Made by a program: the position numbers and the translations under genes | Part shown: positions 1 to 59,272 of the stretch, in pieces | Layout of the letters: each line of letters starts with the position of its first letter | Numbering within the stretch: position 1 is the stretch's first letter | NCBI GenBank assembly: GCA_964187785.1 | Contig: OZ076409.1 | Span: 7,380,001 to 7,444,000, forward strand | Direction: 5' to 3' | Origin: Amphiscolops sp. MND2022 | Taxonomy: Eukaryota | DNA: 64,000 nt | Notes under the pieces: model-generated | Databases searched by the model: none | Told to the model about the DNA's origin: nothing | What the model saw: the letters and a program-made list of their open reading frames with translations, nothing else

Positions 1-2016
1 ATAATTCACACTCCTGGGAAAAATATCTCTGTTGCCGATATGTTAGGTCGCTCTTTTACAAAAGCTGAATTACAACTCAATCAATTAAAACACAAACATT
101 TTCCACCACAAATTGATTTTGCACTGTTACAAAATGGCACTTTTAAACCTATACATCACTTAATTAAACATGAAGAAATCCTACCTCACCAAAAACATGA
201 CTCTCACCCAATTCTCGCTCATTATGGTAGAGATCAATTCTCTATACGTATCAATGACAAAGGAAATGACATTATTGTCAAGCCTTTACAATCCTTTTCA
301 TTTAAATCTATAACTCCTTTTCAAACAAAGTTCAAGACACCTATAAAAAAGAACAATGAAACTCTTCATCGACAATCTCTTTTACTCAATGATACTGATA
401 TTACAAGCGATGACGAAGATCATATATATACCAGAATTCCAAAATCTGACTCTTCTTTCTTACATGACTCAACATTACAAACAAAAAACTATTCTACTCT
501 CAACAAAGCAACCCCTAAAACCTCACAAATATCCGTCTCTGCATTAAATGTACAAACAAATTTACCATCTCTCACACATTGTCCACAGATTTTACCTATC
601 TATGATACATCATTTTTCAAGTACAAAAACTATTTTCAAGGTTTCTTCCTCCCAGATGACTACTCATTAGAGATAACAACACTTCAACAACAACAATCCC
701 AAGACCCGGTTCTCAGAACAGTTTATTTTTGGATTGTTAAAAATGAAAAACCTGAAACTCTAACACCCCTTATCACTGGCGCTCCTTTTCTACATGCTTA
801 CTACAAACGGTTTTCACAACTTTTTATAGATGATTCCACAAATCTTATTAGCCTCTTTAATAAACACCCTCCTACTCAAAACCAATCTTCTACTCCAGAT
901 TTTGTACACGCTACTATTCGAATATGTCTTCCTTTCAGACTATTCAAAACTGTTTTCGACAAAGTTCATGAACACTCTCATACAGGTATCAAGATCACAT
1001 ATAATACATTCGCACAATATTACTACATTTCATTTGTCGAAAAATGGCTTTCCATTTTTATACAAGACTGTGTTGAATGTCAACGCAATAAACACTTTAC
1101 CATGAAAATTCAAACTGCTCCTACACAATCATTTTCAGAACATGCTCCATCTTTCAACTATCGCATTTCAATGAACACTAAAAGACCTATTAATCCTCCT
1201 TCACACAACAAATTCTATATACATGTCATAATTGACGCTTTTATTCACTTTGTCGTTACAGTACCCATCAAATCAAACAATGCAAAAACTGCAATCAAAA
1301 CTCTCCTACACCATTGGATTATTAAATTTGGACCACCCATATATCTTGTTACTGATCGTGGATCAGAATATGTAAACAAAGAAATGGCACACCTTTGTAC
1401 ACTTATGGGAATTCGTCGTTCTCCTAGAACGGCTTACTCTCCTTGGACAAATGGCCTTGTCGAAGTACAAAACAAAAATCTTGGTACACATCTACGAAAG
1501 TTCTTACATGACACACCTAAAGATTGGGCATTCCAAGTCCATATGTACGCTTATGCACATAGTTCACAACCACTTTCGGAACTCAATATTTCTCCTCATG
1601 AAATTGTTTTTCACACAAGAACCAGAATACCCCTTACTTTCGATTTAAATCTTAATAGAGACACCTCTAAAACATGTATTTCACGCTATTGCTTCCAACT
1701 TCCAGAACACTCACATTATGACAAATCAGATCTCAACCCATTTTTTCATAGAACACTTTCAAAACCCATTCCACAATGGTTTCTTGCCGTAGAAACTGCT
1801 ATGTTACAAATTTATTCTACAGTATATGAAAACACTTTACGAAAAATCAATTCACACGCAAACATTACAAAAACTTACCATGAAAGTAAACCACTTCCTG
1901 TTGGCACCTTTGTTTTAAAACGAAATTTCACACATGTACATTTTTCTGGCAAACTAAAACTGGCAAACTATTCCACAACCTACCAAAAATGCAAACAGTG
2001 GTTCTTCTCTTTTTAA
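1..2016 (+). pseudogene. pol: pol C-terminal part: RNase H end, linker and integrase (damaged)
   Basis: HHCC motif (HEHSHTG...CVECQ). Core RISMNTKRP, where the expected first catalytic Asp reads Asn at 1174, plus LVTDRGSEY and NGLVEVQN. Frame is lost near 1960. Confidence 0.9.
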
Positions 2017-3119
2017 CTCAGATGGATCCTTATCAGACGATGACACTCAAACATTTATGACACCATTTACAACAGAAGATTCTCCTCAAACATTTGTGAC
2101 ACCATCTTCATTTAGTACGTCCAATCAAAATACACCATATTTAACATCCAATGACAAGCCTTCAACTTCCTCAACAAATGACAACTCCTTATACAAAATT
2201 ATAATTAACACCCCTCACACTAATATCCCTAGTGACAGATCAAGACACTCTTCTAATAATCAAACAGATTCACTTCCTCCTCGAATTGACAGAACTACTA
2301 AAACTACTTATAAACTACAACAACAACCCAAATTAGATTATAGACTTTTTATAACACCTTCAAAACTGTAACCTCATCATTCTATCAACTGGCTCACTCA
2401 AAACTAGTCACTGCAGCTGAATGCAAGATAAACATTAACAAGTTATCTCAACGATAACCTGTTGAAAACCTCTTTCAAGAATCCTGGATTCTTCCTCTGA
2501 TATATCTTCATCAGCTCCAAGTATTCCTTCTACTCCTGAGTCTTCAATATCAAACACTACAAACTCTAGTAATGTAACTCCTACTACCCCTTCTAAAAGA
2601 CCAAGATCATACGTTTCTGAAACATCATCTTCATCACTCCTCCATAGACCACCTATAACTGAAATTCCTATCACCACTCGTACTCAACAAACCTCTATTA
2701 ATACTCCTATAGTACACATACCAAATCCTGGAAGTGTTGAACAATACGTAAATTACAAACAACCTACAGCTATCAAAACTGTTAGACTACAACCTCAACT
2801 TAATCTTGTACACATCCCTGACACTGAATATACAAAATTACCTCCACTGAAATTACCATCAGAACTCAGTAATACTTCTTCAAAACTTTCTCCACCACTA
2901 AAACCTCTTCCAAAACCTACATCACTATCAAATCTCTTAGACAATACATCAGAATACACTCCATCACAAAATACTACAAGTTCACTTTTTGTACCACAAC
3001 AGAGATATAATCTTCGAGACATTCCTTCACGCAGACTTAGTACAGACACTTCTACACTCAACCTTTCTGCTCTTTCTAGCAATTCTGCTTTAAGACTTGT
3101 ACGACAACACGCACAACCA

Positions 3120-3698
3120 TTGTATTCTGAAAAAAATTCTTCCGAATTTATACCTTCTCCATATTTTGCATCTGGTTTTGAAACCGCCTCTCTACTTTCT
3201 TCAGACGCTCAGACTGCATTCCTTTCTGGAAATCTTTTCTCAGAAGTTATAATACCTACTACTGTTCCTGCACATATTAGAATACCTGAATATTATACTG
3301 CAGTTCAGTCTAGACCTCCAACTCCAAATTTTGCTGACTATCAACTTAGAGTCGATGGTATAACCATCTACGACCCACAACACGATCGTAGATTTCCTAT
3401 CCTTGCAGAACGCTTTATTACAAACAACAATCTCTTATCTCACAAAAGAAAGGAAACAGAATTAAAACGCCTTCAGACACCCAATCTAGAACTCAAATTT
3501 GAAGTTAAAGTTAAATTTCAAGGTTTAAACCCCCATCCAATATTTCACGTCTCCAAGATAGAACATAAAACTTCCCCTGCTCCTTTTAAAGTAGTACACA
3601 TTGATTTTGAACGAGACCTCAATATACCCACTATTACCTATGGCAAAATCACATTCTATAACCCATACTCTGGTCTTAAATATACTACCTCTCTCTGA
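3120..3698 (+). CDS. Element ORF of unknown function between integrase and env
   Basis: 192-aa open frame with element-like composition, preceded by Ser/Thr/Pro-rich broken frames. No motif recognised. Confidence 0.4.
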   Translation: MYSEKNSSEFIPSPYFASGFETASLLSSDAQTAFLSGNLFSEVIIPTTVPAHIRIPEYYTAVQSRPPTPNFADYQLRVDGITIYDPQHDRRFPILAERFITNNNLLSHKRKETELKRLQTPNLELKFEVKVKFQGLNPHPIFHVSKIEHKTSPAPFKVVHIDFERDLNIPTITYGKITFYNPYSGLKYTTSL

Positions 3699-6148
3699 TC
3701 TCTTTACAACCTCTTATATAACAACTCTGATACTCTATTTACACTTATTTAACTTCACCTTTTCAATACCCATAACACCCTCTGATACAGAAAACTATCT
3801 TCCATCGGATGATCCGAATATTACAAATCTCATGGTTTCTCATTATGACTGTGCAAAACAACATAATTTGAGACAGTTTAACTTACTTAATGTGAAACAA
3901 TGCACTGAAGCTCCTTCTAACATTAAACACGCAAGTGTTAAAGCCCGTGTATATGTCCGAGCAAAGGCTAAACGCATCAAAGCTTTTAATTGTGTTGCCT
4001 ATGCAAAGAAAGGAAAATTTGCTTTCAAGGTTCCGTAAAATACCGTCGTGTTGATAGAACTGTATGGAATCATAATACATTACCGCTTCCTGTTATTCTT
4101 GATCCATTAGAATGTAAAAACATTATAGGACATCTAAATGGTACAAATGATAAAATATTGAACAACCTCCACTACAATAAAACTTTCTCACTCCTAGAAG
4201 ATCATTACTTTCAAGAACGATTAGAACAATATCAAACTCCTTTCACTGTATATCAATTAAAAAAATGTATACAGGTACATTTACCTTTATGCCTGCAGAT
4301 AAAAACTGGATATATGACCCTACGCAAAACCCTTATCATAACTGTCCTGCTCATCACAAATTCGAAGTCAACCTAGTTAGTTGGCGCTTAGAAATTTCTG
4401 AAGTAGAACTTACTTATGATGACACATCTAATGACATGATAATAGATGGACATACATTACCCTGCTATTTTGCAGATGGTTTTTGCAAACCCACAACGAA
4501 AACCCCTTTTGCTCTTGTTTGGTTTAATGATTACTATTGCTTAATTTTCACATTACAAGACTTTATTGGTCGTATGACTAAAATCGAAGACAGATATTGG
4601 ATTGAAACACCTTCTTTTGTACATTCTCCACACTCAATAAAACCCAAAACAACTTCTGGTATCAAAGGTACAGAACATCCACATGTTTATGCCCCTCATA
4701 CACAACATCCAAATAACCCAAGTCTTTCACGTTTTGAAGTTTTCCCCACAGCACAAACTTTTTGTGGTAAACCTGACCCACTTTATTCTACACAATATTC
4801 AGACCTTTTTGTTACATACACTGATGGTTTCAATATGCATACAGGACAACCCAATCCTCATTCTATGATTAATGAATATATTTCTGTCAAAATAGTATTA
4901 GACCCTTCAAATAACAAATTTATAATTCCTGCACTCAATGTTTCGAACAATTTTGCTACCATTGACTATGACGCACATATAAATACAAAAATCGATTACA
5001 CTATTAACCACGTTTTTCGATCAATGACAGTACAAGAACTCAATACTCTTCATACACTATGTGAATTAGAACGAAAAGAAATTCTTACAATACTCGCAAT
5101 GTCAGTACAAAATCCTCAATTTGCTGGTTTTCTTTTGACCGGTAATCGAACTAATTTCTTGTACGTCGAAGGCTCAACCGCCTGGCTCTATGATTGTCCT
5201 CATTTCTTATCTCCTTTTTACAAAGCTGATAGATGCTTTGACCGTATACCTATCCACTTTAAAGATACTTTAATGTACGTCGATCCTATTACAAGACAAA
5301 TCTATGACTATGCTACACCAATTACACGTGATAATAATCCACGTAACATTATTGAACTAGATCCTGATTCAGACGATCAAGATTTTTACATTCTTGGACC
5401 TGAACCTTTTAAACGCAAACCTCCACTAATGTTTACACCTTCAAAAATTAAAACTACAATACGCCTTAACACTTTTACAGCTCAAGATGCTGGTATAAGT
5501 TCCAATGCAGAACTTGATCAATTTTGGAATTGTATTTTATTTTCCAAATATTCTGATTCTACACTTGAATTACTAGGCAAAGCTCTCAGTTACTCTTTCG
5601 TTTCATCTAATACTCCTAATTATGATGCAGATTCTCCTCAAGATTCTGGTAATCCTTACAATACACTACGTATAGGACTACATGATAAACTCTTAAATTT
5701 AACTCCTCTTTTTACACCTACATGGTTTTCAGATGCTTTTATTGCACTTTTTGGATACCCTTGTTATATTCTCACACAATGTGGTATATATTTTTCTACA
5801 TTCCTTTTTGTACAAGCTACTCTTACACACATTGTCAAACTTTACAAAACAATATCTATTAAATATAATCTATAAAATAATATTACTTTATTTTGCTCTA
5901 TAGCACATGGTTTTTTTAATGTTCTTACAGCACGAATGGTCACTGACCTCAATGAGACTCACAACAAAAAACCCAAAAGTACACTTTTAAATTCCAAATC
6001 CTTAGATAATTTCATTGACACTTCACCAAATTTAATTATTCATTCTACTGATGTTACTTCCCCTCCACCTTTCTATACTAAACGTCCTAACAGACTTCAA
6101 TTTCCTAAATTTAACTTGTTTCCGAAACGACACCACAATTCCCACTAA
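3601..6148 (+). pseudogene. env: Envelope-like glycoprotein resembling chuvirus G / herpes gB class III fusogens (frameshifts near 4010 and 4262, in-frame stop at 5873)
   Basis: Signal-like TLILYLHLFNFTFS, then YDC..N...FNLLNVKQC, LPCYFADGFC...LVW and LCELER...NPQFAGFLL...GSTAWLYDC...CFDRIPI...YVDPITR. Hydrophobic TM segment (IALFGYPCYILTQCGIYFSTFLFV). ORF 5936-6148 is in frame after the stop. Confidence 0.75.
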
Positions 6149-6557
6149 AAAACTGCTCCACTTCCTTTCTCTCCTGTTCAACATCCTCCACTTCCTAATA
6201 ATACTCATAGAAACTTTCATCCGAATGACAATCTAACTACTCAACATGACACTTTAATTAACAATTCTGTCACCCCTACTACGGATACACCAATTAAAAT
6301 CTATTTGCGAATAAACTATCTTTTCCCTCCTCCATCTTCTTGAACACTCTTTCAGTCTTTTGCAAACTCTCTTCCAGCACACTCGTCTACTCCTTCATCT
6401 CTTCACAATTGCTACTCCTTCACCTCTTGAAACTCTTGCAGAAGTTCATCTTCCTCAATCAAATAACACATCTCTCATCATAACCGTCTTCAAAAACTCC
6501 TCAACTAAAGTTGATAAATCCACTCGTTAGTGTCATTTAAAGTACTATAACTTTAAA

Positions 6558-7868
6558 GTGCTAAGGCCTCTTGTAATAGATAACACTGTGACTGCTGATG
6601 TTTTTCCTTTAAACACAATGACACAAGCACAAATTGATCTACAAAAACAGCTTGAACAAGCAACCCCAGCAGATCTCACAACTAGACCTCTAAATGATCC
6701 TCCCGTTCTCTATATCGAGACTTCTGAACAAACACCTCCAACGTTTCTTGAACAAATGGAACACAAAAAAGTTGAACACGAAAATCCGGAAACTACTACT
6801 TCACATGACGATACTGATCATACACAAACAACACCACCTCCTCCAAAACAGCCATACGAAATCATAAAAGATCCTGTCTTTCTTTCTTCACCAATATATC
6901 CACCTTCAATACCTTCAAAAATTTCGCTTTGTACTAATCGTGATGATCATTTTGATCCCACTTCTATTCATGGCGATTTCGTCTTTAAAGCACAACTAAC
7001 TTCTCTCTATATCCATCCTACTGATTATTCATTTCGCTTATATGACAAAAATCAAGACTTTTTCACATCAATTGGCTCCAAAACAATGGGTCCATACCAA
7101 TATTGGCTTGATAATGGAGTCAAAATTTTCTCTCTACAATTTAACTTTCTACGCCCATCTATCTACGATCTCAAAACAGATGAATCGGATCTATCTTTCC
7201 TTTCTATTTCACAAAAAGCTACTCATCATCAAACGTACACTAAATTCCTACAATACACAAAACCACAAAATCACATTTTCGTCAATTATAAAAATACATC
7301 ACCGTTCACAATGAACAATATGTACACTCTTTATACTTCACGCCCACTTATTGTACCTCAAAAATACCTCATACATTACGATGACTTTTTGTTGCCTTGC
7401 AACATTCCTACTCAAATTGTCAAACCTCTCACTGTCATTAAACATCTAGTATCTTCTCCACTTGACGATAAAGACAGAACCTACAATACAGCACTCTACA
7501 AGCAAACGTATTCCTACAATGAACTTCTCTTCATCTCTGCAAAAACTATTTCGTTTATGGTACAAGCTGAACAAAAAAACGAACATAAAACACACTCTTC
7601 ACCTACCAAAAACACTCCTGACAAACTTTCCTCTGTACTAGATAACCGAACACTGCGAGACATGACCAATTTACTAGAACCATATAAACGAAATCCTTCT
7701 GAAACACCTATCACAACACTCACACATATACTACAATGTTATGACAGAACACACAAACTTCTACAGACACTTGATTTAGACTCTAAACGCATCACTCAAT
7801 CATCCCAAGCAATTCAATCTGCTTTGGAAACTATAACTACTCTTTTTAACACAACTAATCTTCGTTAA
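6558..7868 (+). CDS. Accessory ORF of retroelement, unknown function (Pro/Thr-rich N-terminus, possibly helical C-terminus)
   Basis: 436-aa open frame downstream of env on the same strand; first ATG at 6618. Confidence 0.6.
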   Translation: MLRPLVIDNTVTADVFPLNTMTQAQIDLQKQLEQATPADLTTRPLNDPPVLYIETSEQTPPTFLEQMEHKKVEHENPETTTSHDDTDHTQTTPPPPKQPYEIIKDPVFLSSPIYPPSIPSKISLCTNRDDHFDPTSIHGDFVFKAQLTSLYIHPTDYSFRLYDKNQDFFTSIGSKTMGPYQYWLDNGVKIFSLQFNFLRPSIYDLKTDESDLSFLSISQKATHHQTYTKFLQYTKPQNHIFVNYKNTSPFTMNNMYTLYTSRPLIVPQKYLIHYDDFLLPCNIPTQIVKPLTVIKHLVSSPLDDKDRTYNTALYKQTYSYNELLFISAKTISFMVQAEQKNEHKTHSSPTKNTPDKLSSVLDNRTLRDMTNLLEPYKRNPSETPITTLTHILQCYDRTHKLLQTLDLDSKRITQSSQAIQSALETITTLFNTTNLR

Positions 7869-8324
7869 ACTCTCTTACAGGTAGTACAAATTTCTTCATT
7901 TTTATTCTCTGGTACACCCTATGGTACATATTTAGCACTATATCAAAGGTATTTATATTTTTACCTGCTTAATCAAGGTAATATCTTGTTTTTCTGAATG
8001 AATTCTCAGGAAGAGTTTTAAAGTACATACTTCTTTCCTATAGTACATGTCAAACATAACTAATTTTGTCTAAAACACTACGCATAACACAATGGTACAA
8101 AAAATACAAGACGCAAAAAACAATGGTACAAAAAATACAAGATGGTATAGCAAAAAACTACGCATCATACCTTTTAGCACCTTTTTATATGGTACTTCTC
8201 TTCTATTGTCGTTGTCAAATTCCTTACACTTCGTGTGTTTTAGAAACATCCATTCTTCTTTCTCCTCCTTCCATACTCTTTCAGAACATCTCCACTTCTT
8301 CTTCTTCTACAGGACACTCTCGTC

Positions 8325-8774
8325 ATGGCCCCCAACGCTGAAGTAGAAGATATAACAACTATGACTTCCAGTCAATCAAAAGTACACAGCCTCAAAGCCG
8401 CCATCTTTCATACAATGGCTTATAAACTTTCTATCGAAATCAACAAGAATAAAATCACACCCAAAACTATTATTGCTTTTCTCAAAGTTCTATACAACGT
8501 TGCCCACGAGACGAAAAAAATCACTTTTGAACAGTACTCTCGAATTCATTTGGCTGGCCCAAAAACTGCAATTTGCGAAACTGCATCAAATGCTGTTTTC
8601 GTTTTGAGTTCTGCATTGACATCGAAAGACCAATATTTCCACACTGCCATACAAGAAGCAATCCTTGCCTTCAACAACATTCTCAAAGATTTTGGGTACA
8701 CCCAAACCCTTGAATACTACGACCCACATGTGCATCAAGCACATCCTCCGCCGCAACACCCTTTGTTCCAATAA
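8325..8774 (+). CDS. Second small accessory ORF of retroelement, unknown function
   Basis: 149-aa ATG-initiated ORF with globular-looking composition, upstream of the presumed LTR. Confidence 0.45.
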   Translation: MAPNAEVEDITTMTSSQSKVHSLKAAIFHTMAYKLSIEINKNKITPKTIIAFLKVLYNVAHETKKITFEQYSRIHLAGPKTAICETASNAVFVLSSALTSKDQYFHTAIQEAILAFNNILKDFGYTQTLEYYDPHVHQAHPPPQHPLFQ

Positions 8775-9356
8775 TTACCAAAAACTTTCACTCACTTTTA
8801 TTTACTCTTCAACTACATCTCGTCTTCATTTCTTCATCCTTCTTCGATGATGTCCCGACATGTGGTTGCTGATCACTCCTCCAAAGAACTACGCTGACAC
8901 TTCTCACTGCTTCACGCACACCCTCCAGATGGTCAACATCATCCATCGCCACTGGGTTCTTCCATCTTGACAACCTGCTTCTGCAAATGTCAACTGGTCA
9001 TCACAATCGTCACTTCAATGCTGACTTCTTTCAACTTGACTGGTCTTCTCACTTTGCGCCACTGAACTGGACTCAATTCACTTGTGACGAACTGAACTCG
9101 CCGCAATTCATTTGCCAATTTCAAACTATTTATTTGCCGTAAATGTCAAACTGTATCTTAATAACTTTAATGTAACTTTAACGTATAATCTTATTTATTG
9201 TTAATTCATAGTATAACCTTAATCATGCATAATCTTATCTAATCTTAATCTTGTATAATCGTACTATAATTACCCCCTCTGTTATTAAACCCTTACAAAA
9301 ATTCATCTATAATTACCTTTGTAACCGCAAAATATATCCCCAAATTATATCCCCAT

Positions 9357-10619
9357 TGTCATGTGTATAATACATCTTTTAACAATTCTATAAGCCACAT
9401 CTTTTACAGAACACAAGTCCTACCTATAGTACAAGAAATTTTCTAAGATTTCTGACAAAAATTTTCTCCTTTACAAAACATGTTCTACACCTTTGTTTTA
9501 CTTCCCCAACAGCATTCCCAAAAAAGTTCCAAAATTTTTCTTTTGACCATTTCAAAACTCTAACTTTTCGTTTTTCAATGTTTGAAACTTGCAATTGCCA
9601 AAGTTCTTTTATTTCCAGAACTTCTTGCTTCTGCTTTACTCTTCACTTTCGTTGAAAATGAACTCTCACCAGAACCTTGACTTTTCGAAACTTCTTCACT
9701 TTTGGTTCACATACCCGCCAATGTTGGTTCACAACTCATTGACAACATCACGTTTTAATTTTTCAACTTGAAAAGTTTTCAAAGCTGACTAACTCCTGTT
9801 GATGAAAATTTTTTCAAACAAGCTGATGGCTGATACGAAAAAGAAACATCAAATAGTAAATAAATGTCAACAATAACTTGACCAAAAACTGTCAGTCAAA
9901 GAAACTGAAGGAACTTGAACCTTTTTGCACCAATTGAATCGCGACGTAAGAGGTCAACTCGTCTAAGGTTATTCTCACTACTTAAGTATGGTACATTTCA
10001 GAACAAAACTCATGCATAACAAATATGAACAAATCCATGCACATAACATCTGAAATAGAAACTTTAACTTTTGAGACAAAAAACTTTTAGAACTCCTCAA
10101 ACCCAAAGTGCATATATGTAATTTTAAATTTTAAATTCCCGGTTGATTGTGATGCCATGATGCATGTCCTCAAAGATTCTTTAACTTTGAAATAGCTTGA
10201 ACTCCTAACCCAAGTATTTAGCAGATGTAATCCTATTTGAAAGCTATTTATTCTAGAAGAAACTTCATTAAATATATCCTGTAACAAGCTTCTTAGATTC
10301 ATCCTGTTGCTGTCACATTGTTTATTGATGAAACCTACCCTAGTTAATAGAATATATCTACTCGGAGAAATTGAGAATTCATCCTGACGATCGGTCTTCT
10401 ATCCAGCACTTCAAGAACTGAGATCTCAGAAAAAGATTTGACTTAGAACTAGCTAGCTACCGGACTTAAAGTAAGACGACTTCGCTGTTAAAATCATAGA
10501 CTTCTTATGTCGGTAATAAAACATCCTAAAGAAACAACAACCACACTTTTTAACAGCTCATGTTGTCTCCACATGAACTCACAGAAATAACTGTCAACCA
10601 TGCTTGAAGAAATGTGACA
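9357..10619 (+). repeat. Probable 3' LTR of element 1 (start uncertain: TGTCATG at 9357 or TGTCACATT at 10311)
   Basis: Ends in TGTGACA with AATAAA ~100 nt upstream. TGTCA...TGACA termini resemble the other LTRs here. No clear PPT, and the partner LTR is outside the window. Confidence 0.4.
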
Positions 10620-10859
10620 GCTTCAGTTTTTTCGTTCACGCTGACATACAATTTTGCGAAATTCATTTTTGTGAATCAGAATAAAACCGGAAGTGAGCTG
10701 AACAAATTTTAAAGACTATTCAATATTTTAAAAAAGTGATTAATTTGTTCAAACTACGTGAAATGTTTCATTGGAAACTCAATTGAGAGAAAATTAATTG
10801 CCAGAACAATATCATAGAAAAGTGCGTGGGAAGAGAAAAAGTTCCAATAATAATTTTAC

Positions 10860-11005
10860 CGGTTTTGCAGTAGCAGGTGGTTTGGGGTAGAATTTACCCA
10901 GGGACTTCAACCCGGTCAAAGCTGGGGGCGGGGCTTGAGTTGGCTTGGCAACTGCCCTAGATGGCGTCTCACTCGTCTCCGATACTTGCGAATTGTCTGA
11001 GAAAT
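10860..11005 (-). CDS. Putative host-gene exon (Ser/Pro-rich)
   Basis: Acceptor ttcttgcag, phase-1 open frame FSDNSQVSETSETPSR...; donor uncertain. Confidence 0.45.
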
Positions 11006-12175: not shown

Positions 12176-13309
12176 CCCTAAATGGACGAGGTAATTTCAG
12201 GATCCATCCAAAAGTCTGCTGATTAAACCTTAAACCGCAATATCTTCTAAACTATTCTCGTCCGACAAACGATTTATAGTGCGTTCGAAAGAAGACAATC
12301 AGGGCTTTCTATTTGATTTTTAAACTGCTTGGCAGAGCTCCGGGCTTTGCGCCAAACCCGTGCACGCCTCGTGTCTCTGATTGCAATTCCGTATGTTTCA
12401 AAACATGCTAGGGCCACTTTGACCCAATATTGATACCAGTGGGATAAAGTGGCCATAAACGAAAACTGAAAAAAACCAGAGCCGCATGTGCGGTAAAGGA
12501 GTCGGCTTAGGTATTTTTTTCTGAAGTCGAAAAATGGCCCTTTTTTGACCATTTTTGGGCTAATTTTGGCTATGTTTCTCACATCCCAGCCATACGATTT
12601 TGATGCCATTGCACATATAGGACTCTAATATGGTGTAGAATATTTGTAGAAAATTTCGTTCGAATCGTATGGACAGTTTTTGAGAAAATCGAAAAAAGTC
12701 GAAAAATGGCTGTTTTTTGGCCATTTTTGGGCTAATTTTGGCTATGTTTCTCACATCCCAGCCATACGATTTTGATGCCATTGCACAAATAGGACTCTAA
12801 TATGGTGTAGAACAACTGTAGAAAATTTCAAAATTTCGTTCGAATCGTATGGACAGTTTTTGAGAAAATTGAAAAAAGTCGAAAAATGGCTGTTTTTTGG
12901 CCATTTTTGGGCTAATTTTGGCTATGTTTCTCACATCCCAGCCATACGATTTTGATGCCTTTGCACACGCAGGAGCCCCTTTGGGTGTAGAATGACTGTG
13001 CAAAATTTCGTGAAAATCGTATGGACAGTTTTTGACAAATTTGAAATTTTCATGAAAAGGTCGGGAGAAAAAAAAACAACACGATTGCATAAGTAGTCGA
13101 AAATTTTTTCCGACTCCTAAAAACGGAAAATCAACGCTGATTTTTTTGGTCCCATTTTTTTCTTGATTTCCGAGACATGTCATTATTCCGTGAAAATGCG
13201 TTCAATGCTATGTAATATTGTCTGAAATTCTTTACCATACAGCCAGCTGGTGCCTTGAGAAATTTGCAGAAACTAACTGGTACGAGATCGTGCCATCGTC
13301 CATTTAGGG
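12176..13309. mobile_element. piggyBac-like MITE with internal ~175-180 bp tandem repeats
   Basis: TIR CCCTAAATGGACGA / TCGTCCATTTAGGG, flanked by TTAA and TTGA. Three internal tandem units at ~12530-13040. Confidence 0.75.
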
Positions 13310-14440
13310 TTGAGCTTGCTAATTGCATGTGTTAATTAGAAATCTGAAGGTTTTCGACATTTTTGATTCGATTTAATGCGATTCAGATTATACATACATG
13401 TCGAAATAAGTGTTTGATGCACTGTCAGTCGTGGAATCGGCAGGAAAAGACGCCCTCCGAGGCAACTTTCCACTGGAGGATGTAGACTTTGTTGCTTTCT
13501 CTTGGTCCTATACACAAACAGCAAACAATGCTAACCGCAGTCAACCAGAAAAAGATTGGAACCAGAGCCGCATGTGCGGTAAAGTAGTCGTAAATGGATC
13601 CAAACATTGGAAAACAAATTTAAAATGAATTGTTGTAAGGACAGTTTTTGAGAAAATCGAAGAAAGTCCAAAATTGGCCGTTTTTTGGTCATTTTGGGCT
13701 AATTTCGGCTATATTCTTCATATCCCAGTCATACAATTTTGATGTCATTGCGCACGCAGGAGGACCTTTGGGCGTAGATTGACACTGCTAAATTTTTATA
13801 CAGATCGTATCGAGAGTTTTTGAGGAAAAAAGTACGATTGCATAAGTAATAGAATATAAGTAATAAAAAATGGTTTTAGAAAGAGTTACCTGAGAGTTCT
13901 CTTTGTTCGTGTCTATCTGCGACAAAGACTTCATTTTCAGCAAACGATCTGGAATTCAAAAACTTTTGATGTTGCAAAATCTTTCAAAATTATCCAATAA
14001 AATACCTGGGAAAAATCTTGGAAAAAATTGAACGTTTCAACTCCTTTCAAGCTCTTAGTCAATGCAGCCACAGCCAATAACAAGAAAACCAATATTTTAT
14101 AGTTCAAGTTAGCCAGACAACAATATTCCAGTTGTATACAGGGAGACAAATACCTAGAAGTATCCGTCAACCTAAAAGCTGAAAAAGCTCAAGTATCAAA
14201 AAGCGTAAGATAGAATTTCAAACCATTTGTTCAAAATTGAAACTCACCTGAAAACTTATCATCACCAAAATATAATCTCAATCGGTGGCATTAAATGTCT
14301 CCAATCAGGCAGCATGCAGTTTTTAAAAGTATTCCCACAAAATTGTCTTTCTCTATTTCACCATTCTCCCAACCTAGATATTACCCCCACATTTGCTCGT
14401 TTTCGAGAAAGTTTTAATCTCCTGTTTGTGTTCTACTCAC

Positions 14441-14603
14441 TTTCGAGGAGGCTGTCAGAAGATGTCTTGCTAAGATCGGAAGATGTGCGAGAACTCAGTT
14501 TCCGAGAATCCTTCCTCAACTTTTGATCAGACTTCTTTCTGGGAGGTTCCAGCTTCCTGGATTCTGGAGCTAGTTGCTCTGGCCCCTGAAATCGTTGCAT
14601 TTG
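14441..14603 (-). CDS. Putative host-gene exon
   Basis: cctag acceptor, gtgagt donor, 163 nt open in phase 0->1, compatible with the 17009-17187 exon. Confidence 0.6.
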
Positions 14604-14664
14604 CTAGGTATGAAAGTACACAATTTCATGTCTTTAGTTTAACTGCATTGTATTCCTTGACTGT

Positions 14665-15395
14665 AAAAACGGGAGCGGGACAAAACAGTCGATTTTCAAA
14701 ACAGTACAAAATTGCCGATTGGTAAAAATAAAGAAGTATTTTCGCCGATTTTGTCAATGTGTGAAATTAGCAGTCAAAAAAATTATTATTCTAACGTAGT
14801 CCGCTATTTTCACATACACCTAGTGTCCTAAATGCAGGAGCGGAGCGACGTGCCATATGGCCATGCCTCAATGTTGCTACTTGACGAAGGGAGCGAAGCG
14901 ACCGAGCCATACAACAAATATACTAACCTCTTAAATAAATCAAGTTTCATGCATATTGGCTATAACAGCACTCATTTTGTTCCATTTTGAAAATCGGCTG
15001 TTTTGTTCCGTTTTGAAAATCGGCTCTTTTGTCTCGTTTTGAAAATCGGCTGTTTTGTCCCGTTTCAAAATCGGCTGTTTTGTCTCGTTTTGAAAATCGG
15101 CTGTTTTATCTCGTTTTAAAATCGGCTGTTTTGTCTCGTTTTCAAAATCGGCTGTTTTGTCTCGTTTTAAAATGGGCTGTTTTGTCCCGTTTTGAAAATC
15201 GGCTGTTTTGTCTCGTTTTGAAATTCGGCTGTTTTGTCTCGTTTAAAATTGGCTGTTTTGTTTCGTTTTAAAATTGGCTGTTTTGTCTCGTTTTGAAATT
15301 CGGCTGTTTTGTCTCGTTTTAAAATTGGCTGTTTTGTTTCGTTTTGAAAATCGCTTGTTTTGTCTCGTTTTAAAATCGGCTGTTTTCTCCTGCAT
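14665..15395. repeat. Foldback-like element with ~29-30 bp tandem array
   Basis: About 14 units of TTTTGAAAATCGGCTGTTTTGTCTCG at 14975-15390, with inverted copies at 14665-14725. Confidence 0.75.
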
Positions 15396-16399
15396 CCCGT
15401 ACAAACATTGCAACTAAATACAAAAAAGTACACCGGTAAAAAAGTTTTTTTATTAATTTTTAAGATCAAAAGTTTGTTAACGAAAAAACTTGAACAAGCC
15501 GAGCACAGCTCGAAGTCAGTGCAAAAAATTCGAACTCCGTCTTAGGAAATAAAATGAGTGGTTGTAATAGAAAGAAAGAGGAAAGAAAAGCAGCATTCAT
15601 TTCATGGCCATTGTTAGTTTAGTTCACGGCACTACTTTCAAATTCATGGATAAACATGGATAATTTCAAATTAAATTTGAATCCTGGATAATCATCCATG
15701 ATGATTTTCATTACATTCTTCCCAAGATGAAAACATTCAAATTCATGGCTACGGTGACAATCTATGAATCATTGATGAAGATAGTAGACAGAAAGCTACA
15801 TGTTTTGTTAATCGCGAAAATGTTCAGCAAGTTTGCGATAATTTCGGCAACAACTCATAAGGAGTGCTTAACTCGAATGAGTTTTGATACAAACTTTGGT
15901 ATATACTAAAGTCATCATCCTATAAATTTAAAACGCCAGATAAGTAGATTTCTCCGAAATGCGCCGGCTAAAAACGGCAATGTCTGCCCCTAGTCTGCTG
16001 CTTCTCTCGAGTTCTTATCTTCCCCACCACCAAACTTTTATGGAAATTAGTGGAAAAAATTATAACAAAATATGTCCCTTTTACCTTTCTTGCTAAATTC
16101 TCCGGATATTTTCTTCAAACTGAGAAAATGTTTTGGTTACATTGGTTTCCTGAAGTTTCTAAATTAAAAAAACTAAGCTCCCCGATTAAATGGAGTAGTC
16201 GCCGAACAAGCCGTTCTGCTTTTCTAAGTCGGCGCCCTTTATGTTACTACTATCTCTCCCTAGCAAGCTACGGTGCCATATTTGCAGCCAAGTGGTCAAA
16301 CAATAGTCGGCTGGAAGCTGAAGTTTCAAAGTGACTTGCTCAAAGTTACAAAGGTCTGACTGCTCATCGTTGTTCTTTTTGTTTTTGTAATTGATCACA

Positions 16400-16512
16400 C
16401 CACTAAGCTCAGGATGAAGGACTTGCTCAAGCCCCAACAATGATGCATTGAGAGAGGTTCGAACCTGACACTGCTCCTCGATGCCCTTACCACTACACCA
16501 TGCTTCTCTCCC
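16400..16512 (-). repeat. tRNA-derived SINE head
   Basis: A-box-like TGGTGTAGTGGTAA and B-box GGTTCGAACC on the minus strand; no intact cloverleaf. Confidence 0.55.
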
Positions 16513-17008
16513 TGTCATTTCTTAAAATTTGAACTGTGTATGCTACAAACCTGATTTTACTCGTTCAGCTCTGCGAGAGAGTATCTGTCGTTTGAGTAAA
16601 AACTTGGAAGACAAAATACGGAAAGAAATCCACTGAGAGGTTGATTGATGTTCATTTCTTGTATGCAATATCAATGAAAACTGTCAAAAAGAAACTGTCA
16701 TTGCATCGTTTAGTTTGTTTATTTCGGTTTTGCCAAATATTGCAAATATATTTACCTACGTTACATACGTTTTTTCTTCATTACGAGACACATCCCGATA
16801 AATGGGTTTCACTGAGGCAGCGTAATCTGTTCATCGCTGAAAATCGTCATTCAGCGTAAGTCAGTCAAGACGGTCTATGCCTGGATGGTGTAGCTGTGTC
16901 AACGTGCGTAATGGAAAATAGTGAAGTTCACATAACCACCTTTTTTCCCATTGCGGAATCAAGAAGAATTTTACAATTCAGGAAAAAGTCATAAAACTGT
17001 GGACATAC

Positions 17009-17187
17009 TTGATGCAGTTCTGTTTCTGATTTCCAGGAACTTGGAAGTGTCTGCATCGTGGAATCAAGACCCTTTCCATTGCCTTCTCCTTCACTTGTCG
17101 ACATCTTTTCTCGCAACGAGCATCGACTGTGTGAAAGTGATACCACCGTTCCAGTGGAAGACTTCTTCAAGGTCTTGTATGTGGTAT
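17009..17187 (-). CDS. Putative host-gene exon
   Basis: ctcttctccag acceptor, gtatgt donor, phase 1->0, open (TTYKTLKKSSTG...ELHQ). Confidence 0.65.
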
Positions 17188-17204
17188 CTGGAGAAGAGCA
17201 AAGG

Positions 17205-17800
17205 GCATATCGACATCTCATATCAGGCGACAACTCATATCAAATCAAAAAAGTCACTACTCATATCAACCGGGAAAAGCGACATGTTATATCAGGTTTG
17301 CCTTTAGGCTTGAGCATTAAGCATCTCTAATCGCAGTTAATTCTAAATGTTTTTGAAGTTTATTTCAGGTGTTTTAATTAAGTATTTTCAATTCAGGTAT
17401 TTAATTAAATACATGAATTAAAAATACCTAATTACAAATACCTGAATTAATCTTCAAAAACATTTAGAATTAACTACGATTAGAGATTCCAACGTTTATT
17501 TAGATAAACTTCTCATTTTATACGCTATATTAAAGATTATTTTCTCTACACCATGATTATCCATGACACTGGATTTATAATTTCTAAATATTTGCTCAAC
17601 TAATTATCGCTAAATATTTTAATAAAATATTTAAAATGATTATTTTGATTTTTTAAACAGGATTTAATTCTCTAAAAACAGTTCTGATTGATAAAAGTTG
17701 TCGCTTGATACGAGTTGTCGCTTCTTCAATTTGCTATGAGTTGTCGCCTGGAATGAGGTGTCGCCTGATATGACTTGTCGCTTGATTTGAGTTGCCACCG
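17205..17800. mobile_element. Foldback/MITE with GCGACAACTCATATCA subterminal repeats
   Basis: Direct units at 17209-17296 and inverted units at 17687-17797; inner palindrome at 17326-17487. Same family as 39574-40000. Confidence 0.7.
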
Positions 17801-18254
17801 TACACGAAAGAGAACGCAACAAAAATGTTTCAGAAAGATATAAGAAACAGTTGATTTTTTCACGCGTCAAATGCTCCGCAATCGCTCGGTAAAAACCAAA
17901 GTTAGTTGTTACTTGCGCTTAGGTTGTAGTCGTGCTCTATTAACCCAAAACAAACACCTCTACTGGAGCTCAAATGTAAAACCAAAAATCTCGCATTCAA
18001 TGAACGAAATTTCGATAAAGATAAGAACCTAAGATATAAGTAAAATTGAGACATCTCATTGATTCTATTACGCAAAACTTCTAGGTTAAAAACATGAAAG
18101 TTGGTTTTGAAGAAAATGTTGAAGTTCATTTTTTGACCTGAATAAGACATCAAAACTACTCTTCATTTGAAGTAGCAATGCAGGTCGCTTGAAATGTTCT
18201 ACAAGGCGGCCAAGTTGAAAACTAGATCTAAGAATTGGTCAACAAGATCTTTAA

Positions 18255-19075
18255 CCCTAAATGGACCATTGGTACGATTTCGTACCAGTTACTTTCTGCA
18301 AACTTCTAAACCCACCAGCTGACCATATGGTAACAAAAACTCTTGAATTTGATTTTCAGACGATATTACACAGCATTGGACGTCTTTTCACGGAATATTG
18401 ACATGAGGTCTCCAAACCCAAGTAAACGGGGCCAAAAAATCAAAAAAAATGTACGCAGATTTTCAGTTTTTACAGTTTTTGTTTTTGGCGACTTTATCCA
18501 ACTGGTATGAAGATTGGGTCGAAGTGGATCTAGCATGTTTTCAAACATGCTGAAATGCAGTCAGAGACACGAAGCGTGCTAAGTTTTGGCGCAAAGTCCT
18601 AGGCCAGTCCAGATTGATTTGAAAGCCCTGATTCTCTTCTTTCAAACGCGCTATAAATCGTTTGTCGGACTTCAATAGTTTAGGAGATATTGCGGTTAAA
18701 AGTTTAAGCACAAGATTTGTGGAACGATCTAGAAACGTTTCTCAGATCCCAGTTATTAGGAATTTGATGGGATTGCACAATAGGACCCTGATATGGTATA
18801 GAATGACTGTAGAAAGTTTCTTTCGAATCGTATGGGCAGTTTTGAGAAAATAAAAAAAAGTCCAAAAATGGCCGTTTTTCAGTGACTTGGGCTAATTTTG
18901 GCCATGTTTCTCAGATCTCAGTCATACGATTTTGGGGCGCACGCAGGAGCACCGTTGGGTGTAAAATGACTGTGCAAAATTTTATGAAAATCGTACGGAC
19001 AGTTTTTGATGAATTTGAAACTTTTATTGAAAGGTCGGGAGAAAAGAATTTTTTTCGACTCCTAAAAAGCGATGA
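18255..19075. mobile_element. Rearranged relative of the piggyBac-like MITE
   Basis: Starts TTAA|CCCTAAATGGACC. 18480-18720 is the reverse complement of ~12200-12450, while 18800-19070 matches 12630-13120 directly. Confidence 0.65.
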
Positions 19076-19989
19076 TTTTTCTTTGTCTGTTCGCTCGTAC
19101 GTATAAAGTGATGATTAGCACCAAAAGCGCTTGTGCTCTCCAAAAAAGCTAAGACCCAAAAAATTAAGACAGTTGATTTGACTAACGACACTTTTCAAAG
19201 TGCAATATCCTTCAATATATTGATATTATTAAAATAGTCTCAGCAGCAAAAGTCTCTCAAATTGTGATCAGAATTACAACGGTACAGTTTTGGTAGCCTA
19301 GCCTATCCTCAATGGAAAACCAACGAAGCAAGACTGTGCCCTGCAAAACTTGAAAAATTCTTCGCAAGAAAAAGTTTCTGAGCTAGATAAGGTCCGCGCT
19401 TATTGTGGGTTTTGCGTTACCAACATCGAACACGGCAGATGAACAGGAATTGCAAAATTATTTACGTTTTATGCGTACTTTCTCGTTTTCAAATGCCAGA
19501 AATTCTGAAATTTAGTTCATCAAAAAGGTCCCGAAAACGCTTTGAATAGTGTCAAAAATCGTGACACCAAAACGACAAAAGGTACCGAAAGATATTTTTT
19601 CTGATTATACGATTCTGTTATAATTTGAAATCGAAAAGAGTGTCAGTCAAATCCAATTTTAGGAATCGGAAACAATTTTCGACTACCAATGCAGTCGTAC
19701 CTTTTTTCTACCGACCTTTCAATGAAAATCTCAATTTTCTAAAATTGTCCATACAATTTTTCATCAAATTTAGCACAGTCATTGTATCCAAAGGTGCTCC
19801 TACGTGTACCATTACATTAAAATCGTATGAATGGCATCTGAAAAACATGGCCAAAATTAGTTCAAAATGACCAAGTGACAGTAAAGTAAGTCATTAGTTT
19901 TTGAATATTTTAATCCGTTTCCGACACTTTTATAGCACATGCGGTTTTCCTTGAAGGCTGACAGGTATGAGAAGTGTGAAGGTTCTTAC

Positions 19990-20173
19990 GGCTTGAGAAA
20001 GAGATGGATCCCTCTGAATCCATTCTGACACCCCCTCTCTTCTGGACTGGCTCGGCTGAGATGGACACCTGGATGTCATCAGCACTGGCGACACCCGGCG
20101 GCAACTGCAGGTCCAGATGGGTTTGAGGGGTCCGCTTCGTAACTTCCACAAATTCCCCATTGTTTCCAGGGTA
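19990..20173 (-). CDS. Putative host-gene exon, second half of an FN3-like domain
   Basis: ttgcag acceptor, gtaag donor, phase 0->1; YPGNNGEFVEV...LQLPPG...IQVSISA. Confidence 0.7.
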
Positions 20174-20327
20174 CTGCAATACAAGGGATATTTCTGCTGA
20201 TGAAAATAGTTTTTATTTTCCGCCCAATCATAATGGGGGAGGAAAATCATATTCTGTGTTGCGTTTTTTTCCCAAATTCTGCCAAATCTCCACAATCTCC
20301 ATCTTCACTTGACTATTTTGTAAATTC

Positions 20328-20450
20328 TAGTCACCATGGCACAGTTGGTAGTGCGTCTGCCTGACAGACACGAGGTCGTGGGTTCGTACCCGTGCTGATT
20401 CGTTACATTTTTAGCGGAGGATGTCCCGGTGCTTAACGGGCGTCTTGTTT
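20328..20450 (+). repeat. tRNA-derived SINE
   Basis: TGGCACAGTTGGTAG A-box and GGTTCGTACCC B-box; related inverted copy at ~62295-62381. Confidence 0.6.
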
Positions 20451-20546
20451 CATATTGATTTGAGAAGCCGATGTTACTAATATCGTATCTTGCTTCGAAA
20501 TTTTAGGCGTTTTTTTACCTTCGTCAAATTTAGCAACGTCGTGAAA

Positions 20547-21030
20547 AACAAGCCGAGAACGGCATAAGTCGGCGCTATGCCTAAGGCTCAAAAAGCGGAA
20601 TTTTATAAAATATGCTCAGGACGTTTTTCATGAACAAACTCACAAAAAAGCTTTCGAAGCACTTTCGAAAACTCAAATGACCGAACTAGCCGCGAGTACC
20701 CACTGGAGCGGACCCCTGGCGCGCTAAAAATGGGTTTGCGCGCTTTCGGTTTTTTAACATCCATTCTGTTGCAAAGTATCAAAAGAAATTAAGGGTGACC
20801 CTTTGGAGACATTAAAACAAGTCTCAAAACGCCAAAAAAACTGAAAGGGGGACCCTTTAGTCTCGCCCGCTATTGTATGTTATGCTGAAAAAAACAACTT
20901 TTATAGTTCAGGTCCTTGAGCGGAATGGTCCAATTTGACACCTTATAATTTCGCAGATCTTTGTAGAACTATTTAGGTCAGTTCGTGTGGATTGAAAAAA
21001 AAGTCACTAGTATAGTCGCGTGTCACTTGA
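20547..21030 (+). repeat. Dispersed repeat family (AACAAGCCGGGAACGGCATAAGTCGGCGCCATATCTAAGGCTCAA ... AAGCGCCGACTAAAA)
   Basis: Related copies at ~21280-22102 (+), 23246-23667 (-), 26941-27460 (-), 62400-62852 (+) and 63878-64000 (+). Confidence 0.75.
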
Positions 21031-22132
21031 AATTAGATTATGCAAGAAACTCTAAGCCAATAGAGAGAATGTGTTACTTCGTGAATACTGTTTCTATCCC
21101 AAAAAAACACTAAGGTTGAAAGATTTTGACAAATTCAATTTTTAAAATCCCGAAAACAAGTATAAGCTTCTTGACAATGAGACATCTCTTCATGCGTATG
21201 AGACAGCTTTTCATGCTCGCATGACGAAAAAAAAACATAAAGTTGATCAACGTCGCTAGTAAGTTCACGAACTATGCTTAACAAGATGGGAACGTCTAAA
21301 GTCGGCGCCATATCTAAGTTTCAAAAAGCGCAAAGTTTTAAAAATATGCCCAGGACGATTTTATGAATAATGCAGAAAACAATTCCGACACACCCAAAGA
21401 GTGCCTTTCATGCTCGATAAGACTCGGGAACTACTTTTTGACGGTCTTAAAAAAAATAAAATTCGGATATAATGTGCTTGTACACTGAGAAATCCAAATT
21501 TTAAGACGAAAATTATTCATTGTGGAAAATCTCACAATTCCCAAAGTTGTGAAAGGGATGATCCCTTTGGATTTTTGAAAATTCAGTTTGTTGCAAAAAT
21601 ATCAAAAAATGAAAAGGGGAGACATCAAAAAATTTTCGTAAAAAAGTCGCACAGTGCTTTAAAAAATGGTGACAGGGGGACTCATTCAGACTCGACCGGT
21701 TCCGCAAATGCACGAAAACGTTTCTGGTTTCACGAAAAAGTTTCTGAAGCGGGGACTTAAACCCGCAACCGCTGGGTTCCCTCTAAACCGATTAAAGCTG
21801 CACTAAAAAGTGGTATCTAATGTGTGAGCTCTGTGGTCTGACGAAAAAACTAGTCACTGAAAAAAGCGGAGGGGAAAGTCTCATAGGGCCAAAAATTGGA
21901 AAGGGGGACCCTTCTGCTCTGCAATGGTTTTGTATTTCATGTTAGAGGCTTTGGATGCGTTCCAAACCAAGTACTAAGTACTTCTGGTAAACGTGTACAG
22001 TGCACAAAAAGAGGTACATACAGGGTGAATTCTGTGGTCTGGGGTAAAAACTAGCCACTGTAATAGTCGGGCACCTTTCACTAGAAAAGCGCCGACTAAA
22101 AATACACAATTCGATTATGGATTATTACCAAC

Positions 22133-22324
22133 CTTGATTTTGACTCGGTAGAGATACTTTTGACCAGCACTGGACTCAGAATGAACTATCGCGTCGCTGC
22201 TGGAACAACTGACCCAGTCTATGCTCAGGTGGCCCCGCTCGCCATCATAAGTTATTTCAATGTTTTCTGGACTCACGCTTTTCTTCACAGCTGAAACAGT
22301 TTTTGTCTCTGAAAATTCCATGAA
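22133..22324 (-). CDS. Putative host-gene exon, first half of an FN3-like domain
   Basis: 192 nt ending at a gttggt donor; SPENIEI...LSIDW...YRVKIK. Joins the 19990-20173 exon in frame. Confidence 0.65.
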
Positions 22325-24114
22325 CTGACTCTCGATTTTAGTATCTTTTAACCAGCTGAAAGTTAATTCCTAATTCGTGACCAACTGAAAAATAAAGAAA
22401 TTCTATCATTACGATACATACGCCGGAAAAGTGGAACCTATCATTAAGTGTGAAGTGTTTTTGTCCGTAAAACGAGAGCGAACCGTATCGTGTAATACGA
22501 AATTGTGATCATCGAGCGTAATTAGAGAAAAGTGGAAACAAGTCAATAATTTTCAACCTAAAATTGGCTCAATTCCGTATCTTTAATAAAACGTTAACGC
22601 ATATATTGTGTAATGATTGGGATCATATTATAACTAGGTGTATGTTGGAAATTAAGCAAAAGGAATATTATCATGATTGTCTGATCTGCTTTCTGCTAAA
22701 CTTCTATTATGCCTTTCTTCATTTCATGTGGACAACCAATTTAGACACAACTTCAAGCAAATTGAACTACAGCAATAACTTAGTTCAAATTGATCAGAAC
22801 TCCAACCAAGTTCGACAAACTTCAAGTGAATTATCAATTCTTTGAATAGATACATTTTAGTCATATATCGGTTCTTTTGATGCTTGCCATGCTTGAAACC
22901 GCTAATTTGAAGCGGAAATTGGATGAAAAACCGACCAAACTTGGTCTGTCCAATTTGCTTGAAGTCTCATCAAACTGCTTGAAGTTTTTTCATTTGAAAG
23001 AAGATTGTCTAACTTTCTTGAAGTTTTGACGAATAAGAATGAAAAGAAGGTATATTAACTTATTACTGTATTTATAAGTCAAAGTTGGTACTTTAAAAAG
23101 TACAAACCAACATGTAGATAGCATGTGACCACTGACTGCCAGCTCTTCTACCATCCTCTGATAGGCCGACTCGATCTCAGCCCCTTTCAAATCATTCCTC
23201 TGTTCTTTCTTCATATTGCTCTTCTCTCGGCTCAAACTTTCCCTTTTTAGTCGGCGCTTCATGAAGTGAAACGCGACTATTATAGTGACTCTTTTTAAAT
23301 TTTTTTTTCAATCCACATGAACTGACCAAAATAGTTCTTAAAAGTTCTTCGAAATTTTATGGTGTCAAATTGAACCATTTGGCCTAGCGAACTGAACTAA
23401 AAACGTTTTTCCTCTTTTTCGGCGTAACATACAATACCGGGAGAGAATAAAGGGTCCCCTTTTCAGTTTTTTCGGCATTGTGAGACTTTTTTCATTTTTT
23501 TTGGATGTTAAAAAATCCAAACGGGTCCCCCTTTTAGCGCGCTAGCGGCCCCCGGTTTGCCAATTCGGCCCAACTTTCGTACTGTAAAAGAATACTTGAG
23601 ACTTTGACGGCTTTTGCTATTCTTGAGCCTTAGATATGGCGCCGACTTATGCCGTTCCCGGCTTGTTGCCCCTTCCTTTGGTTCCGATTTCTTCTTGCCT
23701 CCGACTGGCGACTTCGTTTCTACTTTCACTTTCTTTTCATCAGTCACAGGTTCTTAAAAAATACAAAAGTTTAATGTCATCTTTTTTCTATCATATCTGT
23801 TTTATTTTGGTTTCGAACTTGTAAACACACATCAATAGTTTTCCTTAGAAATGGTACCATTTGTTGCTTTCATAAATTTTGGATTGATAAGCTGCACTTT
23901 CCCACATCATTTCCTTAAATTGAACGATGCAACTTTGGAAAGAATTTTGTAAAAAATTAATGCATCTTTTGAATCGTTTTCAGCTGGAGTTTGCAAATCT
24001 TACAAGAATCTTGAAACGTTAGTGTCATATAATGCATTTTCTAACAAGATATTACAGAATTAGATGAAAGGACTTTGCAAGAAAATCTATAATTTTTATC
24101 TATGATCAGAATGT

Positions 24115-33317: not shown

Positions 33318-33377
33318 CAGTGTACATTCTTCATGTTAAAATATTTTCTATAATTTATGCCCTCTTGTAACTTGAAT

Positions 33378-59270: not shown

Positions 59271-59272
59271 AT

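Follow-up and report, generated by a model that had tools for sequence, protein, structure and literature searches.

Chary and Hayashi (eLife, PMC13524379) have described 1512 Ty3/gypsy elements with an envelope gene, among which F-type and gB-type envelopes are equally widespread. According to its main text, gB-type env genes are found in gypsy elements across animals, 114 of them detected with chuvirus-like baits, and an ancient acquisition of env is argued for. The same text leaves open whether the class III envelopes of retrotransposons serve infection. The list of groups in that survey does not cover every animal phylum, its supplements hold sequences of domains I-II only, and its prefilter tolerates, in animals other than insects, a pol-env distance of at most 1000 nt. 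Some classes of Oikopleura Tor elements have an env with an internal promoter, as stated in the corresponding report (Henriet et al., PMC4402516). The Tor4b element is reported in the survey as sister to F-type tunicate elements (PMC13524379).

The combination of a gypsy element with a gB-like envelope is already published, and the lineage described here adds one more to these 1512 elements. We have analyzed a stretch of 64,000 nt, which we call the window. The locus found at its beginning is very probably one decayed member of a high-copy group of Ty3/gypsy (Metaviridae-like) LTR retroelements bearing env, which are gB-type "errantiviruses" in the broad sense of that survey, with an env that is old in their pol lineage. 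The less ordinary part of this family is its extra gene content, chiefly a 445 amino acid gene located after env.

The envelope gene and its relatives

The env pseudogene extends from 3640 to 6343 on the forward strand, as found by tblastn with a relative, P0001. It appears as three overlapping frames downstream of pol. Pfam, tblastn and the predicted fold of this relative identify it as a class III (gB/chuvirus-G-like) fusion glycoprotein. The original prediction ended the gene at 6148, but it reaches 6343: the earlier end point is a premature stop, as there is an in-frame stop at 6146. Two frame changes are found, near 4005–4017 and 4241–4265, as expected. In-frame premature stops are also two (5873 and 6146) instead of the single one which had been noted, so the gene contains four breaks.

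The largest piece of the gene, 4181–5872, matches the Pfam family PF24664, Monjiviricetes_fusion (E 2.1e-15; 56 bits, with a cut-off of 27). The N-terminal piece only gives a weak Pfam match (E 0.02). PF24664 is also present in all 12 relatives scanned. The motifs follow each other in the sequence that had been announced: YDC at 3844, a C-x6-C "GxC" at 4463, CELER at 5060 and a CFxxIPI variant at 5234; the second of them is only an approximation to the CxYxxGxC initially described. The window copy retains 13 of the 14 ectodomain cysteines of P0001. It is about 10% diverged from the nearest cluster representative, and P0001 is 91% identical to it.

Signal peptide and transmembrane segment have been judged from hydropathy, homology and the P0001 model. 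In the window copy, the N-terminal piece shows a hydropathy (KD19) peak of 1.53 at 3718, while no 19-residue stretch of the main frame exceeds 1.5, so its transmembrane segment is weak. In P0001 there are peaks of 1.77 (residue 27) and 1.76 (residue 715), and the model has predicted helices at 694–745. Both features had been proposed for this locus. They have a basis in hydropathy and homology, with a transmembrane segment which is clear in the relative and faint in the window.

The env piece has 318 homologous proteins among 4423 candidates. The 120 of them that are listed are 52–92% identical, all from ENA. Four env clusters have 1758, 603, 424 and 1585 members. Near full-length Env is found in 3, 9, 7 and 3 of the 15 members listed for each cluster, respectively. 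Most listed members are fragments. The cluster sizes should not be read as copy numbers, since fragments are included and several assemblies may contribute. A search of 50% representatives with env gives 1554 matches at E<=0.001. Four subfamilies, 50–80% identical to one another, each keep open frames of about 860–920 residues and the set of cysteines. The closest Env relatives outside the family, full-length proteins among the matches to the 50% representatives, are 23–34% identical to P0001. Conservation of the 14 ectodomain cysteines is 91–100% at every one of these positions among the 25 distant relatives, counting those that have a residue there. In IMG/VR we have not detected any env relative among 47 candidate stretches, nor any pol relative among 133. 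A search of sequencing runs lists one run as carrying the element, with no RNA run among those listed.

The fold has been modelled on P0001, a natural open-frame relative, and not on the pieces in the window, using a 53-sequence alignment. The AlphaFold model is of middling quality (pLDDT 63, pTM 0.39) and has a long central helix (444–489) with beta-rich domains. Foldseek against PDB gives 93 matches at E<=0.001; the 34 rows listed are all herpesvirus gB, with a best E of 1.2e-12. Against BFVD, the best match is the glycoprotein of a chu-like virus (E 8.6e-29), and the best matches correspond to chu-like, xinmo- and qin-related glycoproteins, with herpes gB ranked lower. Identity to viral glycoproteins in these structural alignments is 9–16% (12–16% in the BFVD top ten). 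VIA-align, with 48,161 chains, places class III fusogens in all its top 10 rows, including HSV gB (Z 8.6, 392 aligned, rmsd 15.6), domain IV of pseudorabies gB (Z 8.4, 156 aligned, rmsd 3.8) and the PH/fusion domains of rabies G (Z 6.8, 139 aligned, rmsd 7.5), Z values near 8 falling within the range of this tool for unrelated best matches. The global TM-scores of the model to gB are low, 0.14–0.22, with rmsd 17–43 A. PDB sequence searches with the window env piece and with profile A2 give no matches at E<=10.

The assignment of the modelled Env of this family as a class III fusogen, with a gB/G-like domain architecture, is secure, since three structure searches agree and the cysteines are conserved. 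The lack of a class III match had been put forward as the result that should refute the original prediction; such a match was found, and all the PDB rows listed by Foldseek are gB. The envelope is, as proposed, chuvirus/gB-like and not baculovirus F-like, according to PF24664 and to the gB and chu-like structure matches. F-type Env proteins are recognized by a furin site and a fusion peptide. None of the four Env relatives checked has a furin site (R-x-K/R-R), and the predicted fold is class III.

Pol, element layout and origin of the envelope

The 3' part of pol occupies 1–2016 on the forward strand. It includes the end of RNase H, a spacer and an integrase with zinc finger and core, and it is supported by Pfam and by a 77% match to residues 1042–1701 of P0349, a related Pol. 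The frame 1–2013 matches rve (E 5e-13) and Integrase_H2C2 (E 5e-8), which confirms that an integrase lies upstream of env. The pol tail follows in a shifted frame at 1958–2371 (forward strand), after an internal deletion: residues 1764–1878 of P0349 match 1970–2368, while residues 1702–1763 have no counterpart in the window. This deletion, near 1960–1970, removes the C-terminal (GPY/SH3-like) region of the integrase. At the same site, a second copy of the element, in a contig of run X1, has 185 letters and the window has 9. One of the three catalytic acidic residues of the integrase has also been lost. By itself, the window copy can produce neither a complete Env nor a functional integrase.

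Sequencing or assembly errors might be invoked to explain these breaks, the copy being intact in the organism, and both env frame changes do sit in A-rich runs. Nevertheless, such errors would also have to account for two in-frame stops and one lost cysteine in env, for an integrase without one catalytic residue and with some 60 codons deleted, and for a divergence of about 10% from the nearest cluster representative. We consider this explanation very improbable and treat the locus as a decayed copy.

The integrase search gives 21 long proteins among 1299 candidates. P0349 has 1878 amino acids in an open frame, matches the window integrase at 81% and belongs to a cluster of 1183 members. Its order is a CX2CX4HX4C knuckle, a protease motif (seen by eye), RT, one RNase H, integrase and a GPY/SH3-like end; both the GPY/F motif and the knuckle are visible. 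The order protease-RT-RNase H-integrase is present in P0349, in P0353 and in L001, a near-complete gag-pol-env element in a metagenome contig (1–13166), whose protease is a Pfam match. Of this series, the end of RNase H and the integrase are all that falls within the window. In these three Pols a single Ty3-type RNase H directly follows RT. The best PDB match of P0349 is Ty3 Gag-Pol (E 3e-48, 167 bits), followed by 8r0s "enzymatic polyprotein" (90 bits) and foamy virus Pol (66 bits), so the Ty3-type affinity of its RT/RNase H is a similarity ranking. Pfam matches in Pol include RT_RNaseH, Integrase_H2C2 and SH3_Tf2-1. Peptidase_A17 is a Pao marker, and Pfam gives no match to it in the Pol of this family. 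The domain order and the Ty3 Gag-Pol match agree with the gypsy type predicted for the element.

A conserved spacer between protease and RT is common to the family and L001 (residues ~365–560 of P0349 and L001:2214–2564). Its interpretation as a decayed dUTPase is not supported, as hhalign gives a probability of 0.6% and there is no Pfam match.

The X1 contig, 9,908 nt long, is collinear with window 1534–10560 at less than 90% identity and then diverges. Because of this collinearity, pol, env and the flanking ORFs are assigned to one element, whose 3' end is near 10560. The 3' non-coding end, 9398–10560 (forward strand), probably includes the 3' LTR: the X1 contig matches it and then diverges. 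AATAAA is found at 10515 and the window reads CA at 10560. Strand skew is about -0.4 in the element and goes down to zero by 10500. GC skew is -0.28 to -0.49 over 1–10000 and is confined to the element, with flanks near zero. A second copy of the 3' end is found neither within 1–11000 nor elsewhere in the window. Of the decayed element, the 3' two-thirds are present, the 5' end lying outside the window. The gene order is pol, an ORF, env, one or more accessory ORFs and the 3' end, with about 1.3 kb (~1270 nt) between pol and env. This gap exceeds the 1000 nt prefilter mentioned above, so the lineage could have been missed in that survey (PMC13524379).

Env might also be a solo chuvirus-derived EVE, or a domesticated host gene, beside an unrelated gypsy remnant. 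Solo glycoprotein insertions are among those reported in mosquitoes (PMC7642597), and there is some 1.3 kb between pol and env. This explanation is largely refuted by the second copy in X1, in which pol, env and the downstream ORFs are found in the same order. In addition, clusters of more than 1000 members exist for env, for pol and for the accessory gene, a single strand bias runs across 1–10000, and the gene is broken in the window copy. A solo insertion is extremely unlikely, and we retain a single element.

Some relatives are rearranged natural copies: P0167, P0346, P0355 and P0405 correspond to tandem env, tandem integrase, a gag-integrase fusion and an env-accessory fusion. To judge from these sequences, members of the family seem often to undergo internal deletions and duplications.

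The rest of the window contains other repeated sequences. A second, unrelated gypsy-type element, about 16 kb long, is found on the reverse strand at 45852–61975, with gag, protease, a dUTPase domain (PF00692, E 6.7e-6, above cut-off), RT, RNase H and integrase. It is flanked by direct repeats of 1555 nt, 98.7% identical, which include the start of gag, and it has opposite-strand ORFs at 49614–51797 (728 codons) and 52703–53863 (387 codons) with no Pfam match above cut-off. There are two long tandem arrays: 23980–26200, with a 45 nt unit in about 48 copies (95–97% identity), stop-free in several frames, and 27622–32175, where a 167 nt unit is repeated about 26 times at near 99% identity. Repeats of 50–180 nt, both inverted and direct, are scattered in large numbers over 12195–27487 and 32538–33325 and suggest MITE-like elements; the latter region also has 15 nt tandem units in inverted orientation. 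A weak match to a transposase zinc-binding domain, below cut-off, is seen at 35349–35621 (reverse strand). Scanning 61 of the 96 short ORFs outside the env element with Pfam gives no host gene and one transposase-like match below cut-off.

A metagenome scan for env yields seven loci from 17 candidate stretches, of which only L001 reaches pol. Its Env is 27% identical to P0001. Its Pol is 32% identical to P0349 over 1169 columns, with a bit score of 541; three other gypsy-type Pols, one of them from the second element in the window, give bit scores of 55–128 against P0349. In L001, both Env and Pol are thus related to those of the family, which points to a long co-inheritance of both genes. As far as this one locus can tell from its sequence, it points to an env inherited with the pol lineage for a long time, with no recent pickup. 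Its env is followed by two ORFs that are paralogues of each other (35% identity over 188 amino acids), and one of them weakly matches the ORF after env in the locus L005 (E 8e-5).

A tree of env, made with a quick method from 33 rows, with no named outgroup and a weak backbone, shows the family as one branch with support 100 and length 1.38. Only the family branch has been read from this tree, which has not been used to establish the origin of env.

The original prediction favored an independent capture of a class III glycoprotein from a chuvirus-like negative-strand RNA virus, apart from other gB-type gypsy elements. An event of this kind is proposed for the BEL/Pao element Anakin in the report describing it (PMC7642597), the best viral structural neighbours of Env are chu-like, xinmo- and qin-related, ahead of herpes gB, and the family branch in the env tree is long and fully supported. 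On the other hand, identities to the viral proteins are just 9–16%, against 23–34% for the closest env relatives outside the family, although these measures are not strictly comparable. No relative appears in IMG/VR (0 of 47 candidate stretches). L001 couples related env and related pol, and the cysteine spacing of domains I-II fits by eye the Insecta_C1 and Platyhelminthes_C1a rows available from the survey (PMC13524379). An independent capture is not supported by our results: the combination of a gypsy element with a gB-type envelope has been published as widespread and probably ancient (PMC13524379), and we regard such an event as improbable. As co-inheritance is deduced from one locus, a separate ancient capture keeps a small part of the probability. 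An env which is old in its pol lineage is the explanation we prefer.

Additional open reading frames and the role of Env

A conserved accessory gene, about 445–470 amino acids long, is found after env at 6531–7868 on the forward strand. It is identified by its homologues, by the P0405 fusion and by length controls. Its 445-codon ORF has 256 homologues among 2044 candidates, one listed match being the protein of the window itself. They include clusters with 1036 members (82%) and 502 members (61%), whose open-frame representatives have 460–473 amino acids. None of 1000 controls is as long. In the window copy about 25 residues are missing in frame, and the profile matches it in two blocks. The linkage between env and this gene is confirmed in another copy, as P0405 is a natural fusion of both. 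The ORF has no Pfam match above cut-off and no usable match in the ESM Atlas, and the model of the protein is unusable (pLDDT 32).

A stop-free frame of 410 codons occupies the gap between pol and env, 2466–3698 (forward strand), and overlaps the start of env. It is 35% Ser/Thr/Pro and has no Met in the window copy. Its length is reached by none of 1000 shuffles and by none of 1000 Markov controls. A protein, P0126, is 74% identical to it over 144 amino acids, the X1 contig differs from the window by small indels in this region, and there is no Pfam match. This frame might possibly be an accessory gene between pol and env. Another frame, with 176 codons, is found at 8244–8774 (forward strand), its first Met being at 8325. 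Frames as long occur in two of the shuffles and in 11 of the Markov controls (1000 of each). The segment 8223–8488 is conserved in the X1 contig. No Pfam match above cut-off and no usable ESM Atlas match have been found for this frame, which could conceivably be a second downstream accessory gene.

The three extra ORFs of the window show no similarity to the nine env-flanking ORFs compared from L001–L005. The layout may still mark the whole clade, since the distant L001 also has two ORFs after env. In a search of the literature, mostly of open-access papers, neither this family nor any accessory gene of gB-type gypsy elements was found described. LTR elements with added ORFs do have a precedent, as extra ORFs have reportedly been found in LTR elements of rotifers. 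The family might represent a "complex" retrovirus-like lineage of invertebrates: a divergent gypsy clade with a class III envelope and accessory genes of its own (one in the pol-env gap and as many as two downstream of env, the main one belonging to no known family), present in very high copy in several subfamilies, in a host group which may lie outside the published survey. We offer this description tentatively, as its chances seem slightly short of even. With a conserved accessory gene next to env, invertebrates would have a counterpart to the regulatory genes that complex retroviruses carry.

The way in which intact copies may work is suggested by the errantiviruses of Drosophila, by the Tor elements and by what is general to class III fusogens. 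Judging from the family, they would replicate by reverse transcription and integration. Env would be made from a subgenomic RNA, enter the secretory pathway and trimerise in the membrane wrapping Gag particles. It would act as a stand-alone fusogen, whose fusion loops insert and whose trimer refolds to a hairpin. Most likely, it would serve to bring particles out of somatic cells and into the germline. For the protein encoded after env, regulation or the avoidance of silencing (RNA export, expression or counter-defence) would be the most likely function, a guess by analogy with complex retroviruses.

Env could instead be a passenger. The family would then multiply in germ cells without it, env being in decay or having another role, such as receptor blocking or cell-cell fusion. 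The window copy and most listed cluster members are truncated, and the four relatives checked lack a furin site, both of which speak for this explanation. Nevertheless, four diverged subfamilies have each kept open frames of about 860–920 residues and the cysteine set, and furin sites are reported not to be always conserved in gB-type Env, at least in the main text of the survey (PMC13524379). A passenger Env appears unlikely, and we favor a role in the transfer of particles. The many open-frame Env proteins in diverged subfamilies are good material for testing whether retrotransposons use class III envelopes for infection.

Comparison with known systems

The gB-type errantiviruses, as described in the main text of PMC13524379, are the closest to this family: they have a gypsy Pol followed by a class III env, a similar signal and transmembrane architecture and multiple copies, and a furin site is not obligatory. 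The domain I-II cysteines of the family (C-x10-C ... C-x6-C, eight cysteines) have the same spacing, by eye and unaligned, as in the C1-type Env of insects and planarians shown there. A single RNase H is found both in the "ancient" group of that study and in our family. The family differs in its stretch of about 1.3 kb between pol and env, with a long frame, and in having env followed by one or two further ORFs; the main text of that paper makes no use of the word "accessory". Its Env is also longer, with a long cytoplasmic tail.

Anakin (Dezordi et al., PMC7642597), as reported there, carries the same broad type of glycoprotein in an LTR retrotransposon, but the Pol of our family is of the Ty3/gypsy type and not BEL/Pao. 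The Tor elements are divergent gypsy elements with env, and Tor4b has a gap between pol and env, according to their description (PMC4402516). The classic Drosophila errantiviruses (gypsy, ZAM, Idefix) are also gag-pol-env Metaviridae and provide the model for spread from soma to germline; their Env is F-type, while that of this family is class III. Chuvirus/Monjiviricetes G and herpesvirus gB share PF24664 and the class III fold with the family Env, which is only 9–16% identical to them in structural alignments and is encoded by an integrating retroelement, not by an RNA or DNA virus. Retroviridae, lokiretroviruses and Odin, as defined by Kojima (PMC12440569), have a tether domain and a second RNase H, in contrast with the one RNase H after RT found here. 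Troyka elements are described in the same source by the absence of env and GPY/F, a CX2CX8-10HX4C knuckle and CG termini (PMC12440569), a set of features from which this family departs.
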